Shown: one piece after another, positions 3,284 through 61,360 of the stretch | Position numbering within the stretch: position 1 is the stretch's first letter | How the letters are laid out: the number at the start of each line of letters is the position of its first letter | DNA from: Dehalococcoidia bacterium | Lineage (GTDB): Bacteria; Chloroflexota; Dehalococcoidia; SHYB01 | Reading direction: 5' to 3' | NCBI GenBank assembly: GCA_965220155.1 | Contig: OZ244810.1 | Span: 626,728 to 690,727 of the forward strand | DNA length: 64,000 bases | Notes under the pieces: generated by a model | Database searches by the model: none | What the model was told of the DNA's origin: nothing | The model's input: the letters and a program-made list of their open reading frames with translations, nothing else | Made by a program: the position numbers and the translations under genes

Positions 3284-4732
3284 TTAACCGACGCTCCCTT
3301 CGAGGCTGACCTGGAGCAGCTTTGACGCCTCCACTGCGAACTCCCATGGCAGCTCTTTGAAGACCTCTTTACAGAAGCCGTTGACGATCATCTGGTGCGC
3401 TTCTTCGGGCGAAATTCCCCGCTGCATGCAGTAGAAGAGCTGGTCGTCGCTTACCTTGGATGTTGACGCCTCGTGCTCGACGCTGCTGTCCGCGTTCTTG
3501 ACTTCGATATAGGGCACGGTATGCGCGCCGCTGGTGTCCGTCAGGAGAAGCGAGTCGCACTGGGTGTAGTTCCTGGCGCCAGCAGCGGTGGGCTGGACCT
3601 TCACCAGTCCCCTATAGGTATTGCTGCCATGGCCGGAGGAGATGCCCTTGGAGATGATGGTGCTCTTGCTATTCTTGCCTAGGTGCACCATCTTGGTCCC
3701 CGTGTCAGCTTGCTGCCGGTTGTTGACGACAGCCACTGAGTAGAACGCGCCGACCGAATCGTCCCCTTGGAGAATGACGCTAGGGTATTTCCACGTAATA
3801 GACGACCCCGTCTCTACCTGCGTCCACGAGATCTTCGACCGAGGCCCTGCGCACTTGCCCCTCTTTGTCACGAAGTTGAACACGCCTCCCCGGCCATCTT
3901 TGTCCCCCGGGTACCAGTTCTGGAGCGTCGAATACTTGATCTCCGCACCTTCGAGGGCCACCAATTCGACGACCGCCGCGTGGAGTTGATGACTTTTCCG
4001 TACTGGTGCAGTGCAGCCCTCGAGGTAACTCACATAGGAGCCCTCATCCGCCACAATGAGCGTGCGCTCGAACTGCCCGGACCCCTCGCTGTTGATTCGG
4101 AAGTAGGTCATCAGCTCGACTGGGCAACGGACCCCCTTTGGGATGTAAGCAAAGGACCCATCGCTGAAGACCGCGGAGTTCAGGGTTGCGTAGAAGTTGT
4201 CGGTGTACGGTACAACCGAGCCCAGGTACCTCCGCACAAGGTCCGGGTGCTTCTGGACCGCCTCGGTCAAGGAGCAGAAGATGACTCCTTCTTTTTGCAG
4301 GTTCTCCTGGTAGGTGGTGCCGACGGAGACACTGTCGAAAACAGCGTCGACTGCGACTCCAGCCAGCCGCTTCTGCTCTTCGAGAGGGACCCCCAGCTTT
4401 TCGAACGCAGCCAGAATCTCGGGGTCAACCTCTTCCAGGCTCTTCGGGGCTTCCCCCTTGATAGGCGAGGCGTAGTAGATGATGTCCTGGAAATCGATGG
4501 GTGGAAAGGTGACGTTCTGCCATGAAGGCTGCTCGCCCTGGACCTTGAGCCAATGGCGAAAGGCCTTGAGCCGCCACTCCAGCATGAAATCCGGTTCGCT
4601 CTTCTTGGACCAGATAAGCCGGACTGTGTCCTCGTTCAACCCTTTTGGGACCGCGTCCGAGTCGATCTCTGTAACCCAGCCGTGTTTGTATTCGGAGCTG
4701 GGGAGGGCAGGGGAAGTAGTCATCTTGGCCAT
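3284..4732 (-). CDS. sufB: Fe-S cluster assembly protein SufB
   Basis: 482-aa [44 protein letters not shown]..., the SufB family. Confidence 0.9.
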
Positions 4733-19183: not shown

Positions 19184-20317
19184 TTAGCTTAGCCCATACA
19201 GACGGGCTGGGTTGTCCCACATCAGCTTATGCTTGCTGGCCTCCGAGACACCTTCCAGACCGAAGATGTCCTGGATTGCGTGGACGTATCCCCGGCCCTC
19301 GGGGTGGCCGAAGTCCGTGGCAGTGGCGACATTATCATCACCTAGATAGTCGATCACCCACTTGATGCCCGGATCGTCGGGGTCTGCCGAGATGTAGCAC
19401 TGCCGGCGGAAGTATTCGTCCGGACTCAGGGGCGTGCCCGTGAACCTCAGGTCCCTGAAGCCTCCCTGGACTCCCGCCTGCATCCGGTCCAGCCAGAACG
19501 GCACCCACCCCGCGCCGCACTCCAAGTGCACTACTCGAAGCTTCGGATGGCGCTCGAGGATGCCGCCTGCGATAAGCGCGACACTCGCGAACATGTTCCC
19601 TATCGAGAAAGCTGAGATTCCGGAGGCGGCCATCAGGCCAGGGAATACCTGGCTCACCATGGTGTCGGCGGCGTTTCCCGCTGACACATGGACCCCCAGC
19701 GCGGCATCGAGGTCCTCCAGCTCGCTCCAAAGCGGCTCCAGCTCCGGGTCGTAGATGTGCACGCCATCCACTGGGACTGAATTAACGTGGACCGCCTTGA
19801 ACCCCAGGTCTTTGACGCATCTTCGGGCCTCCCGCACCGCTTCCTCGGGATCCCGGAGATCCACTGATCCGGCACCGATGAGGCGCTTATCTTCGGAGCC
19901 GTTAACGAAGTCGTGCAGCCAGTTGTTGTACGCCCTGCGGTATGCCGCCGCCTGCGCGGGCCTCAGCCCTGGAGCAGAGGTGATATAGATGCCGACTGTC
20001 GGATACAGGACCATGTAGTCCATCCCGGCCCGGTCCATCACAGTCGAATAGCACTCGGAGGAGAAGTTCTTGTCGATGAACTCGCCGTAGACATCTTCCA
20101 GTCCGGGGACTGCAGTTGAGCTCCCGTCCCGGCTGTACGGCATCCCGATGTTGTCCCCAATGTGGATGACATGGTCGAAAGCCAGCGGGTCGCACCGGTA
20201 GCCCGTCCATGAGTAGGGCATCTCGTCGCGGAACTCAGGGTCGAGGTAATTGACCCATATGTCCTCGGGCTCGAGGATGTGGGAGTCAGCGTCAATGTAC
20301 TTGTAGGTCTTGTCCAT
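19184..20317 (-). CDS. Amidohydrolase-2 family protein (ACMSD/LigW-like)
   Basis: MDKTYKYIDADSHILEPEDIWVNYLDPEFRDEMPY...HLECGAGWVPFWLDRM...ATDFGHPEG... Confidence 0.85.
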   Translation of the reverse strand: MDKTYKYIDADSHILEPEDIWVNYLDPEFRDEMPYSWTGYRCDPLAFDHVIHIGDNIGMPYSRDGSSTAVPGLEDVYGEFIDKNFSSECYSTVMDRAGMDYMVLYPTVGIYITSAPGLRPAQAAAYRRAYNNWLHDFVNGSEDKRLIGAGSVDLRDPEEAVREARRCVKDLGFKAVHVNSVPVDGVHIYDPELEPLWSELEDLDAALGVHVSAGNAADTMVSQVFPGLMAASGISAFSIGNMFASVALIAGGILERHPKLRVVHLECGAGWVPFWLDRMQAGVQGGFRDLRFTGTPLSPDEYFRRQCYISADPDDPGIKWVIDYLGDDNVATATDFGHPEGRGYVHAIQDIFGLEGVSEASKHKLMWDNPARLYGLS

Positions 20318-20520
20318 GGCACCGCATCCTTTCGGAGAGGCAGTCTCCAGGCAGCTTTTCGGTCCTGACCGCCTTTCGGTCTTGACGGCATTGTAGTCCG
20401 CGGCCCTACTCCCAGCAAGCCAAGGCCAAAAGTTGCGGTGCAGCCTTCAGGAGTGGACTAGAAGTCGTTCAGGAAATGAAAAGGTCCTGGTGCGCTGACA
20501 GGGTCTTTCCGTTGTCATTG

Positions 20521-20700
20521 CTATGAAAATGGGCACCGCCGCACCGTTGTTTCGTAGAGGCGGGTTTCAAACCCGCCTCCGGCCCTGTCCTGGGAAGCCG
20601 CCCTGTTTTCATCCCCTTACGTGGCCTTCACAAGGCCATAGTGATTCTGAGGAGCGTCTTGCATTGTCATTCTGAGGAGCGAAGCGACGAAGAATCTAAA
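20521..20700. repeat. Copy A of a novel repeat of about 170 bp (core about 125 bp at more than 96% identity to 59639..59766 in inverted orientation), containing the perfect 23-nt palindrome GAGGCGGGTTTCAAACCCGCCTC (20557..20579) and a TGGCCTTCACAAGGCCA hairpin
   Basis: ctatgaaaatgggcaccgccgcaccgttgtttcgtagaggcgggtttcaaacccgcctccggccctgtcctgggaagccgccctgttttcatccccttacgtggccttcacaaggccatagtgattctgagg... matches the reverse complement of the 59.7-kb copy with 3-4 mismatches. The flank gattcYgagg...gaRgaatctaa is also shared. Confidence 0.8.
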
Positions 20701-20931
20701 GAGCCTCCTCAACATCTCCGTACCATTCCAGCGACAGGTCTTTCCATTTGGGGTCCATCGACTCGATCAGTGCCACCTTCTTGCTCCGTCGCCAACCCTT
20801 GACCTGCTTCTCCCGCTCGATGGCGGCCACAGCGTCCGATGTCTCCTCACGGTGAACCAGCCAGGTGAGGTTGTACCCACCCTGTTGGTCATGATGTGGA
20901 CGTAGTAGTGGCTATCCGGTCTTGTGGTCAT
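20696..20931 (-). pseudogene. Decayed GIY-YIG nuclease-family gene (internal deletion of about 30 aa plus frameshift)
   Basis: Frame 1 gives MTTRPDSHYYVHIMTNRVGTT..., which is the GIY-YIG N-terminus (YYVYIL...G.LY). A shifted frame gives LVHREETSDAVAAIEREKQVKGWRRSKKVALIESMDPKWKDLSLEWYGDVEEAL*, the conserved C-terminus of small GIY-YIG proteins. The YIGxT...R..EH middle is missing. Confidence 0.5.
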
Positions 20932-21298
20932 GGGCTTTAGATTCCTCGCTGCCTGCATCAGGCAGGCAATCTGGGCGCGGCGCTGGCCGGATCATCGATA
21001 GAACCCCCGATACATACCCCTATCAGCCCGTCAAGGGAGGGGAGGCCGCCGCTAACCCGGCTCCGACCTCGGAAGGCCGGACCCCGCACCCGCTCGGCGC
21101 GGCTGCGGACTCTCAGTGCCGATAAAGAAGAAACCCCGGGTGCGCTGACCCTTTTCTTGACCCAAGTTTAGCCGAGTGCTACTATGCCCCGGCTCTCTTG
21201 TCCACGCATCCCGCCCTCCGGGGCGAATGCCGCGAGCGTCGGCGCCGGCGCTCAACGGACAGGTTACCGCCCCTGTTCATTTCCCTGGGATCAGCCCT

Positions 21299-39639: not shown

Positions 39640-39700
39640 AGGGCTTTCAAGCCTGAACCTCAAGCTGTGACGCAACAGCCGGCCTTCTAGAGTTACCGCG
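39640..39700 (-). pseudogene. Relic fragment of a sufD-like gene (about 60 bp, about 88% identical to sufD nt 1626..1676)
   Basis: ttcaagcctgaacctcaagctgtgacgcaacagccggccttctagag matches ttcaagcctgacgttcaagttgtgacgcaacagccggcctcctagag in sufD. The minus-strand translation AVTLEGRLLRHSLRFRLES matches the SufD segment [21 protein letters not shown]. Confidence 0.45.
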
Positions 39701-54936: not shown

Positions 54937-54978
54937 TGCTACATTTCGGGCGTAGCACTTGGCGCAGCCAAGTGCTAC
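54937..54978 (+). promoter_or_regulatory. Candidate operator: TGCTAC / GTAGCA half-sites forming nested palindromes (TGCTAC-N9-GTAGCACTTGG-CGCAG-CCAAGTGCTAC) 28 bp upstream of the second fmdB-like gene
   Basis: tgctacatttcgggcGTAGCACTTGGcgcagCCAAGTGCTACtttgatgacc. The surrounding 54.75-54.90-kb region is also rich in GC hairpins (e.g. CCCCTCTCCGG-GTC-CGGAGAGGGG). Confidence 0.3.
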
Positions 54979-55892: not shown

Positions 55893-56163
55893 ATGTAAAA
55901 GGCGAAGACGGAGACGAGTAGCGGCCCCCAAGGGCGCTCAGCGAGCCCGGTACGGTGAAAGCGGGTACGCTCTAGGACGCGAAAATCCCTCCCGAGCCGC
56001 TGCCCGAACACGACGTCAGTAGGCGCAGCCGGAAGCCCCCGTTACCGGGCAAGGGCATGAGCGCGTGCCCGGCAGAGACGCCCCGGACCTGATTCGGGGA
56101 ACAAGGGTGGTACCGCGGGTTGATGCAGCCCGTCCCTTGATAGGGGCGGGCTTTCCTGATTTT
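55893..56163 (+). promoter_or_regulatory. T-box riboswitch leader (Ile-specific by context) upstream of ileS, with promoter TTGACC-18-TATGCT at 55857..55886
   Basis: Canonical T-box sequence AACAAGGGTGGTACCGCGG at 56100..56118. Terminator hairpin AGCCCGTCCC-TTGATA-GGGGCGGGCT then TTCCTGATTTT at 56126..56163. Candidate specifier AUC in gcgaaaAUCcc near 55985. Confidence 0.7.
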
Positions 56164-59100: not shown

Positions 59101-59479
59101 GTTCACCTTGCAGCCCCACGAGCTTCAGGTGCAGGGCATCGATAAGCCGGGCTACGCGGTCTCAGCCGATGGGCCCCTTACCGTCGCGGTAACTACCGAG
59201 ATAACGCCCGCCCTTGCGTTAGAGGGTAAGGCCCGGGAGCTCGTCCACCGGGTCCAGAACATGAGGAAGTCGGCGGGCTTCGATATTTCGGACCGCATCC
59301 AGCTCTTCTACCAAGCGGGTGACGAGATCGGTGATGTCTTCTCGAAGCACGGCTCCTACATCGAGCAGGAGACGCTAGCCGAGAGTATCGTGGCGGGACC
59401 CCCAGAGGAAGGCGCCTTCACGGAGAGCCAGAAGATCGATGGGGCGCAAGTCGAGCTAGCGGTGATGCGGGCCGGCTGA
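56177..59479 (+). CDS. ileS: Isoleucyl-tRNA synthetase (type 2-like N-terminus)
   Basis: ...FPEMEERVLEFWKRENIFDKSVQQRAGGPRYTVYEGPPTANGSPGIHHVLSRVFKDIF...KMSKSRGNVVDP.... TTG 56177 with a GAGAGG RBS is preferred because 56162 lies inside the T-box terminator. ATG 56255 is an alternative. Confidence 0.9.
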   Translation: MPEQTKESESRAPLFAAVSSHARFPEMEERVLEFWKRENIFDKSVQQRAGGPRYTVYEGPPTANGSPGIHHVLSRVFKDIFPRYKTMKGYHSPRKGGWDTHGLPIELEVEKQLGIRSKAEIEEHGLDRFNDLCRSSVFRYVKEWEELTDRVGFWTDMENAYVTYENGYVETGWWIIKTLWEAGLVYRGRRVAPHCPRCGTTLSSHEVALGYRENTRDPSVYVKFEVAAEEVPEAIQAHINDRTYLLAWTTTPWTLPGNTGLAVSPDDIYVVLGVSDSGERLILAEALVKQAVPGEHQVLARFPGSDLVGLRYRPLYDPLEYGAELLRFVETGSNELAPVSYRPQPLTYPVISADFVSMDDGTGIVHSAPSFGEDDYNAGSSNGLYFVQPVDLTGTFVGTYPWAGQFVKDADAGILRELKERGLLYRRETIEHTYPFCWRCDSPLLYYAKTSWYLRTSLIKDRLLSANEEITWYPDHIKNGRFGEWLRGNVDWAISRERYWGTPWPVWECSACSAVEAIGSRDELRGKPGIEGFHDGIDLHRPQIDAVTYRCAACHGVMRRLPDVIDCWFDSGAMPLAQWHYPFENAALIDGGEWYPADFICEAVDQTRGWFYSLHAIAALVETATHGRISAPSYRHVVSLGLILDAKGEKMSKSRGNVVDPFEVVNTHGADAVRWYLYSAAPAGNNRRFSADLVAEGVRKFLLTLWNTYSFFVTYANIDGYNPAKASLIEPTEELDRWILSRLNALGGEVTGLLDGYDATAASRRIQAFVDDLSNWYVRRSRRRFWKSESDTDKASAYATLYQCLVTLTKLLAPFTPFIAEEMYRNLVCSISPDAPDSVHLADYPEPDPAKTDEELSRATDLVIKAVSLGRAARNKSKIRVRQPLEALKVATRSSSEREALSRQASHIREELNVKEVSFVEDESELVDIQVQARLDVIGPKYGREIGGVVAAVKQADAATVAPKIRGGTPVEVEGFTLQPHELQVQGIDKPGYAVSADGPLTVAVTTEITPALALEGKARELVHRVQNMRKSAGFDISDRIQLFYQAGDEIGDVFSKHGSYIEQETLAESIVAGPPEEGAFTESQKIDGAQVELAVMRAG

Positions 59480-59615: not shown

Positions 59616-59766
59616 CTTAGATTCCTCGGCTGCGCCTCGGAATCACTATGGCCTTGTGAAGGCCACGTAAGGGGATGAAAACAAGGCGGCGTCCCAGGAC
59701 AGGGCCGGAGGCGGGTTTGAAACCCGCCTCTACGAAACAACGGTGCGGCGGTGCCCATTTTCATAG
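59616..59766. repeat. Copy B of the novel repeat of about 170 bp (inverted relative to copy A at 20521..20700), with the palindrome GAGGCGGGTTTGAAACCCGCCTC at 59708..59730; lies between the convergent 3' ends of ileS and rho
   Basis: Reverse complement of 59639..59766 is ctatgaaaatgggcaccgccgcaccgttgtttcgtagaggcgggtttcaaacccgcctccggccctgtcctgggacgccgccttgttttcatccccttacgtggccttcacaaggccatagtgattc, which matches copy A with 3-4 mismatches. Confidence 0.8.
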
Positions 59767-59959
59767 TAATCGCTCATGCCGGTTGTCTCCGGCGCACCAA
59801 GGTATGAAAATCGGGGGCGCCGGTTGGGTGATGAGTTCGGTAGTCATTGGCGCTCCGAGCCCGTGCGGGAATTTGCCTGGGTGGCCAACAGGCCCTATTT
59901 TCGTACCAATGACATGGGGGAGCGCTTTTCGTGTAGCGCGAGCATAGGGTAAACAGGCC

Positions 59960-61360
59960 CTAGACCGTTGCGCCTTTCCCCTGGTTGAGGGACGCCAGGA
60001 ATTGGGCGTTGCTGGTGGTCTTTTTCATGCGGTCGAGGACCTTCTCGACTGCCTCTGTAGGGTTGTTCGGGTCGTTGTTGATCATCGAAACGATGCGGCG
60101 CAGGAGCCAGACCTGTTTGAGCGTGTCCTCTTCCAGCAGGAGCTCCTCCCTTCGGGTCCCGCTGCGAAGCATATCAATCGCCGGGTAGATACGCCGGTCG
60201 GCCAGCCGGCGCTCCAGGTGAAGCTCCATATTGCCGGTCCCCTTGAACTCCTCGTAGATGACCTCGTCCATGCGGCTCCCGGTGTCCACCAGGCATGTCG
60301 CGATCACCGTGAGGCTGCCGCCCTGCTCCATCTTCCGGGCAGCGCCGAAAAAGCGCTTGGGTGGATACAGGGCGACGGGGTCAATGCCTCCTGAGAGCGT
60401 CCGGCCACTCGTGGGGACCGCGAGGTTGTAGGCGCGAGTCAGCCTGGTGAGGCTGTCAAGCAGGATCACTACATCGCGCCCGCATTCGGCCAATCTCTTC
60501 GCCCGTTCGAGGCCGAGCTCGGCGACCCTGGTATGGTCTTCAACTGGCTCGTCAAAGGTAGAGCTGAAGACCTCTCCCTCTACGGACCGCTCCATGTCGG
60601 TGACCTCTTCGGGCCGCTCCCCGACGAGGGCGACCATGAGGTCCATCTCCGGCGCGTTCTTTGCAATGCCTTCGGCGATGCTCTTCAGCAGCATTGTCTT
60701 GCCCGCTTTAGGCGGCGAGACGATGAGACCGCGCTGGCCGCGTCCGATGGGGGCAAGGAGATCGATCAGCCGGTTGGAGAGGTTCTGAGGGGTGGTTTCG
60801 AGCGTGATTCGGGAGTTCGGGAAAAGCGGGGTAAGCTTTTCGAAGATGGGCCGTTGCCTGGCCTCCTCCGGTTCGAGTCCATTCACCGTCTCGACCCGCA
60901 ACAGGCCGAGGTATTTCTCGCCGTCCTTCGGGGAACGGACCTGCCCCATAACCTGGTCCCCGGTACGCAGGGCGAACCGCCTTATCTGCGACGGTGAGAC
61001 ATACACGTCCCCCGCACCCGGCCTCAGCCCCTCGTGACGAAGAAAGCCGTAGCCGTCGTCAATGATCTCCAGCACGCCTGTCGCAATCTCGGCTGTGGCA
61101 TCGAAGACCTTGCGGGCAAGGTCCTCCTTCTTCAGCGTAGAGATGCCCGAGAGGCCCGCCTCCTTTGCGATGTCCAAGAGCTCTTCCTTGCTCTTGGAGC
61201 CGAGCTCGGCCAGGCTCACACCTGCGTCGGCCTGAGGCTCCGCAAACCTGTTGCCTCGCCTGCGCCTAGAGCGGAGGTTGCGTCTTCCCATGTGGTTGCC
61301 GCCGGAGCTGTTACCGGAGAGCGAGCGCTCTTGGTGACCATCCTGGGTTGTGATTTCCAT
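59960..61360 (-). CDS. rho: Transcription termination factor Rho (with Arg/Gly-rich N-terminal extension)
   Basis: ...[47 protein letters not shown]...[49 protein letters not shown]... Confidence 0.9.

Follow-up and report, generated by a model that had tools for sequence, protein, structure and literature searches.

We describe here module M, a unit of 127–129 nt that occurs twice, in opposite orientations, in a stretch of 64,000 nt from a Dehalococcoidia bacterium (contig OZ244810.1, positions 626,728–690,727; hereafter the window, numbered from its first base). M is a discrete insertion unit, and it lies at a fixed position and in a fixed orientation inside a box that belongs to another repeat family. 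With a probability of roughly 0.6, we consider M to be a small, non-coding, non-autonomous mobile element which is moved in trans, and the favored candidate for the mobilizing enzyme is a transposase of the Y1 type. The repeat is therefore best regarded as probable selfish intergenic DNA and not as a new RNA gene or regulator.

The initial annotation of this region had proposed two inverted copies of a repeat, each with a perfect 23-nt palindrome, a second hairpin and a more diverged common flank, and all of these features are present. A repeat search of the window reported one such inverted pair, 20517–20655 (+) and 59632–59770 (−), which aligns over 139 nt with 96% complementarity. The palindrome, GAGGCGGGTTTCAAACCCGCCTC, is located at 20557–20579 and 59708–59730 and folds into a 10-bp stem with a 3-nt loop. 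When up to three mismatches are allowed, its 19-nt core is found at only these two sites in the window, while 0.01 sites are expected by chance. The second hairpin, TGGCCTTCACAAGGCCA, occurs at 20622–20638 in copy A and at 59649–59665 in copy B, and the diverged tail (gattcYgagg...gaRgaatctaa) extends over 20641–20701 and 59616–59646, respectively. The genomic settings were also described correctly: copy A is positioned between an amidohydrolase open reading frame (ORF; 19184–20317, −) and a decayed GIY-YIG gene (20696–20931, −), and copy B in the spacer onto which ileS (stop at 59479) and rho (stop at 59960) converge with their 3′ ends.

In order to define the ends of the repeat unit, we combined a pattern match over seven copies of M with sequence alignments. 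The seven copies are A and B of the window and those of L120, L121, L128, L129 and L002. L120, L121, L124, L125, L128 and L129 are contigs of close relatives, obtained by exact-protein look-ups with the window Rho, the window amidohydrolase and the GIY-YIG homologues as queries. L002 is a Dehalococcoidia metagenome-assembled genome (MAG) with a full-length homologue of M (76% over 142 nt), the sole one among the 119 matches listed. Across all seven copies, which represent four independent loci and two genomes, M is delimited identically as [A/G]CTATGAAAAT...REP...TTTTCAT...second hairpin...GGCCATAGT[G/C]ATT, where REP stands for the repetitive extragenic palindrome discussed below. The left flank is GTCATT or, at copy B, the ...GCGATT end of a sibling element termed E1; on the right, M is followed by CYGAGG or CCGAAC, in three variants of the box. 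Six of the seven copies have TCATT or CGATT as the left flank, and the same number (6/7) have ATT on both sides. Additionally, the 3′ end of M itself (TGATT or TCATT) resembles the target TCATT. Deleting M, or M together with E1 at copy B, restores a complete box motif, GTCATTCYGAGG...CGARGAATCTAAAG.

Copy A of M spans 20520–20646 (+; 127 nt, GCTATGAAAAT...GGCCATAGTGATT). Directly 5′ of it is the left half of the interrupted box, GTCATT (20514–20519, +), and its right flank is CTGAGGAGCG. Copy B (59641–59767, −) is also 127 nt in length, differs from copy A at three positions and has orthologues in L120 and L121. The core of M, as taken from the fold, covers 20523–20612 (+) and consists of an A/T-rich outer stem (ATGAAAATGGGC / GCCCTGTTTTCAT) around the GTAG tag and REP hairpin at 20554–20579 (+; GTAG-AGGCGGGTT-tca-AACCCGCCT-C). 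In copy B, the tag and hairpin were placed at 59708–59733 (−) by core search and fold. Both hairpins of M are subterminal, the REP lying 34 nt from the left end and the second hairpin (+ strand in copy A, − strand in copy B) 8 nt from the right end. L121 and L129 carry a different allele of the second hairpin, GGCCTCCTAAAGGCC, from which the hairpin is still formed. The only terminal inverted repeat of M is CTATG...CATAG, 5–6 bp in length, and it is not found in E1.

E1 (59768–59907, −) is a 140-nt diverged sibling of M that stands in tandem with copy B and has no REP. In alignments its ends (5′ GGTACGAAAATAGGG; 3′ GATTTTCATACC...CCGGAGACAACCGG...CATGAGCGATT; − strand) resemble those of M, so that the two elements have distinct left and right ends in common and no common terminal inverted repeat. 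E1 was found only in the window and is missing from L120 and L121. Beyond it lies a left half-box, CCCCCATGTCATT (59908–59920, −), which joins 59640–59616 as a complete box once E1 and M are removed.

The palindrome of M is identified by its sequence as a GTAG-tagged REP hairpin, a known kind of sequence. GTAG-type REPs are defined by GTAG (or GTGG) located 0–2 nt 5′ of a stem of 7–20 bp with a loop of 2–5 nt (PMC6006769). In copy A, GTAG at 20554–20557 abuts or overlaps a perfect, G+C-rich, extragenic hairpin with the stem and loop sizes given above. A scan of one genome per species located the 19-nt core in at least 119 loci, in MAGs labeled as Dehalococcoidia, Anaerolineae, Binatia, Thermodesulfobacteriota, Nitrospirota, Omnitrophota, Bacteroidota, Actinomycetota and many others, and the flanks of these loci are otherwise unrelated. 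The usual form of the widespread hairpin is GTAGGGGCGGGTTTCAAACCCGCCCCTAC, and 127 of 147 hairpin instances among the matches listed carry a GTAG/CTAC tag. The window holds two REP copies, each inside M, while other loci have up to seven within 8 kb (L106). In L017 (4401–4972) and L086 (673–1251), hairpins identical to that of M also lie within the reading frame of IS200-like Y1 transposase genes of the HUH class, or a short way upstream of such genes, the products of which read ...MPNHxHGII...RAGLKPAPT...GLPEIVRAFKTFS... The L086 product scores against PF01797 (Y1_Tnp), and L017 is 49% identical to L086 over 183 amino acids.

Systems that pair REPs with REP-associated tyrosine transposases (REP/RAYT systems, or REPtrons) were reportedly described by Nunvar in 2010, Bertels and Rainey in 2011 and Messing in 2012. 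As a rule, a classical REP family is confined to one species or genus, whereas the 19-nt core of M recurs under many phylum labels; such identity of the core across phyla is uncommon for a REP family, and a cross-phylum REP inside RAYT reading frames was not described in the literature we searched. The REP of M further differs from those systems in being neither alone nor part of an inverted doublet (a REPIN), since each M has one REP and a second hairpin of different sequence, and in forming the center of a 127-nt composite. GTAG REPs and REPtrons have been covered by Di Nocera 2013 (PMC3733652) and Quentin 2018 (PMC6006769), and GTAG REPs embedded in longer palindromes are known from Anabaena variabilis and Thermomicrobium roseum (PMC3733652). 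The novelty first claimed for the repeat does not extend to its palindrome; for the 127-nt composite, our literature searches found no described counterpart. The early caveat that the core might turn out to be a known type of element has likewise come true in part, with the REP hairpin and the box of the GIY-YIG cassettes explaining portions of the repeat.

Three features lead us to infer that M is mobilized in trans, most plausibly by a Y1 enzyme: its palindrome is a REP, its asymmetric ends carry subterminal hairpins, and its 3′ end mimics the target. M is nested at a fixed point, GTCATT^CYGAGG, in the hairpin-forming box of GIY-YIG cassettes, with copy A occupying the downstream box of a decayed cassette and copy B a solo box in the rho–ileS spacer, beside E1. 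A Y1 HUH transposase (RAYT/IS200-like) would move M in trans as single-stranded DNA, recognizing the subterminal hairpins and inserting it 3′ of (T)CATT, and any host effects such as 3′-end mRNA protection or insulation would be secondary. IS200/IS605 and REP/RAYT systems likewise recognize subterminal hairpins and insert 3′ of a short fixed target. The miniature elements of IS200/IS605, known as palindrome-associated transposable elements (PATEs) and served by TnpA(Y1), resemble M in several respects: M has no meaningful terminal inverted repeats and has distinct ends with subterminal hairpins, it apparently inserts after a fixed TCATT which its own 3′ end resembles, and tandem arrays are possible (E1, then M). 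M differs from PATEs in that its two hairpins are unlike each other and its ATT flanks also fit a 3-bp duplication. With regard to class, the MITE-like element (miniature inverted-repeat transposable element) offered among the early suggestions is the best supported of them. M is small, non-coding, present in several copies at four independent loci and polymorphic, as MITEs are; it has no terminal inverted repeats of at least ∼10 bp matching an autonomous element, and we found no parent element.

Several observations weigh against mobilization by a Y1 enzyme. IS200/IS605 ends usually carry similar hairpins, whereas those of M (GGCGGGTTTCAAACCCGCC versus GGCCTTCACAAGGCC) bear only a loose resemblance to each other. 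ATT on both sides would fit a 3-bp target duplication by another transposase equally well. No Y1/RAYT gene was found in the 64-kb window or in ∼35 kb of sequence from related strains. M is also rare. One other genome has a full copy among the matches listed, a metagenome scan for the second-hairpin region gave 0 matches, and a metagenome scan for the architecture AAAATRG...REP...TTTTCAT returned two loci (L126 and L127) that are loosely similar and are not used as evidence here; plasmid and phage collections contained no match to the repeat. Lastly, the activity of M is read from polymorphism, no clean orthologous empty site was found among the related strains, and the differences between strains could also come from recombination among copies.

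The diverged flank of the repeat is the terminal inverted-repeat box of small GIY-YIG cassettes. Four intact cassettes at unrelated loci (L130:1447–1850, L131:1430–1835, L132:∼560–960 and L133:∼560–950) consist of a GIY-YIG gene flanked by near-perfect inverted boxes of 31–43 nt. In a fifth (L053:∼400–800), the upstream box matches and the downstream box is a variant. The cassette genes encode proteins of 94–103 amino acids with PF01541, and the boxes share the motif CTGTCATTCCGAGCG.AGCGAGGAATCTAAA. Each box contains a 5-bp hairpin, for which compensatory TT-to-CC and AA-to-GG changes are seen in L133 and L053. All intact cassettes are located in short spacers, and the neighbors of the first four are housekeeping genes (e.g. 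sdhA|sdhB and gcvH|gcvP). Because none of the five intact cassettes contains M, M is an addition to the cassette and no part of it. No published description of such cassettes was found in the literature searched, and nothing relevant turned up there on either the precise motifs or families of small GIY-YIG proteins.

Within the window, a cassette occupies 20666–20971. Its gene (20696–20931, −) is a pseudogene of the GIY-YIG family, homologous to PF01541 proteins with E = 1e-17 to 1e-28; the homologues P0003, P0005, P0008, P0010 and P0011 carry this domain. An internal deletion of ∼27 amino acids removes the YIG/Arg/Glu core, leaving no intact GIY...YIG...R...E arrangement, a 1-nt frameshift is present relative to P0001, and the remnant itself has no Pfam match. 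The downstream inverted repeat (20641–20701, +) consists of the right-hand remainder of the interrupted box (GTGATTCTGAGGAGCG) and, after a linker of 9 nt, a full box (GTCATTCTGAGGAGCGAAGCGACGAAGAATCTAAAG), and it holds the TAG stop of the gene (20696–20698, −). The upstream box, GATTGCCTGCCTGATGCAGGCAGCGAGGAATCTAAAG (20935–20971, −), is inverted with respect to the downstream one and supplies a GAGGA Shine-Dalgarno-like sequence ahead of the ATG. Copy B adjoins a solo box, GTGATTCCGAGGCGCAGCCGAGGAATCTAAG (59616–59646, −), without a GIY-YIG gene. A likeness of the second hairpin of M to the codons for GFTKRY in GIY-YIG genes was considered and judged coincidental.

At copy A, the cassette and M are parts of a 639-nt composite unit (20500–21138) which comprises an end repeat, M, the boxes, the GIY-YIG remnant and a leader of ∼170 nt. 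The composite has imperfect terminal inverted repeats (AGGGTCTTTCCGTTGTC... / ...GATAAAGAAGAAACCCCG) and is bracketed by an 11-nt direct repeat, GGTGCGCTGAC (20489–20499 and 21139–21149), of which the window has only these two copies. L128 contains a paralogous unit at a different locus, with a flanking 10-mer, CGCAGCGGGC, one copy of which lies 21 nt from the end. The direct repeats around these composite units could have arisen as target duplications when a larger element inserted.

Further comparison of related strains demonstrated that strains with identical flanking proteins differ at these loci in the orientation of the core, in which modules they contain and in whether they have E1. Locus A of L124, a strain with the same amidohydrolase protein, has neither the GIY-YIG remnant nor any boxes nor the second hairpin and has kept the M core alone. 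This core (2697–2796) is inverted relative to the identical flanks of window 20523–20612, as seen from BLAST orientations and alignment, and a 16-nt inverted repeat, GTCATTGCYATGAAAA, encloses it; the inversion could be an in-place flip or a re-insertion. L129 has five tandem 36-nt box units (CCCTGTCATTCCGAGCGCCYGCCTGATGCAGGCAG; 330–505) upstream of its GIY-YIG remnant, where the window has one, and also carries extra box copies. In L128, a GIY-YIG gene elsewhere in the chromosome contains a box, the second hairpin and the core, and the same box is uninterrupted at the 3′ end, constituting a paralogous empty site. Because the modules vary where the neighboring proteins are identical, strains of these uncultured Dehalococcoidia-like genomes could be told apart by means of M, E1 and the boxes. 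In their arrangement as intergenic mosaics of short modules which differ between strains in number and orientation, these loci resemble bacterial interspersed mosaic elements (BIMEs). They differ from the enterobacterial BIMEs in that M, E1 and the GIY-YIG boxes are unrelated to them in sequence and in that one of the modules forms the repeated ends of a cassette that encodes a protein. Separately, L121 encodes a 71-amino-acid DDE_Tnp_IS1595 fragment (564–779) upstream of pyrG, and none is present at the equivalent position of L120.

The variation between strains bears on a second account, which we regard as rather unlikely, in which M has no transposition machinery of its own and spreads passively with the ends of GIY-YIG cassettes through recombination, gene conversion or homing-like repair after cutting of the box. 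M is found inside boxes only, locus A and L128 have a larger unit of ∼0.6–0.9 kb (cassette plus M) in common, the arrangement in L128 looks recombinant, and the inverted core of L124 fits recombination between short inverted repeats. However, M interrupts three box variants (CTGAGGAGCG, CCGAGGCGCAGCC and CCGAACGTAGC) at one and the same nucleotide, and their flanks share little that could drive conversion. The five intact cassettes without M, the presence of M in solo boxes that have no neighboring GIY-YIG gene (copy B and L002) and the tandem of E1 and M, which appear as if inserted successively, also argue against passive spread.

A different enzyme acting on M is less probable still. In that case M would belong to the conventional MITEs or derive from a site-specific insertion sequence, and the enzyme moving it would be either a DDE transposase, with ATT as a 3-bp duplication, or an IS110/IS1111-type recombinase. 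Some members of the IS110/IS1111 family target REPs or inverted repeats of other transposons, and IS4321/IS5075 insert in Tn21-family repeats. ISPpu9 inserts in REPs (PMC8450116). Like ISPpu9 and IS4321/IS5075, M is inserted with specificity for position and orientation into the palindromic repeat of another family, but those elements are autonomous, at least 1 kb in length and equipped with their own recombinase, while M is 127 nt and non-coding. ATT on both sides of six of the seven copies, the short terminal repeats CTATG...CATAG, the site- and orientation-specific insertion into the inverted repeat of another element and the DDE_Tnp_IS1595 fragment near rho in L121 are all consistent with an enzyme of this kind. 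Against it, the terminal repeat is just 5–6 bp and does not recur in the sibling E1, a matching transposase was not encountered, and the REP hairpin points to Y1 enzymes.

Mobilization by a Y1 enzyme remains our preferred explanation, and a host function for the repeat as an RNA or protein-binding site (terminator or attenuator, mRNA 3′-end stabilizer, small RNA or binding palindrome) is very improbable. Such a function would suit copy B, which lies between convergent genes, a setting where E. coli REPs stabilize upstream mRNA according to the references cited in PMC6006769, as that paper relays them. The + strand also folds moderately better than shuffled sequences (z = −2.57), and a weak terminator-like site (GGTGCGGCGGTGCC-CATTTTCATA) faces ileS. 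In contrast, the − strand folds no better than shuffles (z = −0.19), and some strains whose neighboring proteins are identical lack the element or carry it inverted or rearranged. The bidirectional terminator proposed at first found no support, as no U-tract follows the strong REP hairpin on either strand and terminator-like matches occur at chance frequency, the sole match per locus being a weak 5-bp stem at chance level.

The proposal of a discrete structured small RNA fared similarly. An Rfam scan of the whole window at gathering thresholds returned one T-box and two tRNAs only, with nothing at either copy, a permissive scan at copy A gave chance-level matches only, and the repeat is absent from most relatives. 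RNAalifold over an alignment of eight copies, whose sequences are too close to be decisive, lent no support to a conserved structure, its covariation term being +0.72. Inference of the strand from G-U-compatible transitions is contradictory, L002 favoring one strand and the window copies the other, and the central loop base is not conserved (C, versus G in L002). The repeat is not coding because indels in L002, which are not multiples of three, shift the frame; this agrees with the non-coding nature favored in the initial annotation. A protein search with the 71-amino-acid ORF shared by the copies found nothing, and annotators are warned that short ORFs across the element are spurious.

Identity of the core with a tRNA-derived element or a degenerate tRNA-Sec (selenocysteine) gene with loop UUUCAAA and a UCA anticodon is effectively refuted: the Rfam alignment over 20525–20610, which takes the outer stem as the acceptor and the REP as the anticodon arm, scores 14.7 bits against a gathering score of 47 (E = 3.9), ARAGORN finds tRNA-Gly and tRNA-Ser only, there is no D or T arm, the center of the ‘anticodon’ is G in L002, and the same hairpin is a generic REP in unrelated contexts at the at least 119 loci.

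As large inverted repeats, the two copies had further been proposed to mediate inversion of the intervening 39 kb, and tRNA-Gly, tRNA-Ser and rpmH do lie inside this interval as predicted. Such an inversion is mechanistically possible, but the parental arrangement is retained in each of the four related assemblies that reach across a junction, and no inversion isomer was seen. Exact look-ups of two proteins encoded inside the interval gave no match. With respect to an origin context, neither a GC-skew switch nor a DnaA-box cluster was found.

The candidate ‘novel structured RNA or inversion switch’ is therefore replaced by ordinary selfish DNA, and the locus cleanly illustrates how bacterial repeats of very small size can parasitize one another in nested fashion. 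REPs, composites that contain them and MITE-like elements are already established; because no description of the GIY-YIG box cassettes or of the precise motifs was found in the literature searched, the surrounding system is more interesting than the repeat itself. We tentatively suggest a joint reading that we hold to be possible rather than likely, in which the widespread motif ‘GTCATTCCGAGCG.AGCGAGGAATC’ would be the hairpin-forming terminal inverted repeat of a large family of small mobile GIY-YIG cassettes, M a site-specific hyperparasite of this repeat, and the REP of M a hairpin that spread nearly unaltered among MAGs with many phylum labels, along with Y1 genes that contain it in frame. 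If true, the locus would record three nested layers of selfish DNA, and the box cassettes and the cross-phylum REP in RAYT genes would be newly described.

Larger REP-centered units different from M were observed in other Dehalococcoidia genomes (L018, L038, L078 and L085, with a unit of ∼115 nt, and L012:1850–1960 and 3900–4010). Because one such unit, TCTTTGAAATGAGGGGTAGCCGAG...REP...CCCTTCAATACTAGGATG, is near-identical at four loci in three MAGs, REP-centered composites are suggested to be a recurrent design in Dehalococcoidia. The window itself contains another GTAG...CTAC palindrome, GTAGCACTTGGCgcaGCCAAGTGCTAC (54952–54978), with a 12-bp stem, located ∼30 nt upstream of a small ORF for a zinc-ribbon-like protein (MPFYDFKCPNDHKFE...). 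The T-box leader (RF00230, 99.9 bits) lies at 55896–56140, immediately upstream of ileS. Lastly, a 52-nt direct repeat (GGGGCTTCAAGCCTGA..TCAAGTTGTGACGCAACAGCCGGCCTCCTAGAG) is present at 1623–1674 and 39641–39692, 38 kb apart, with 87% identity and unrelated flanks, and may be a common promoter or regulatory motif.

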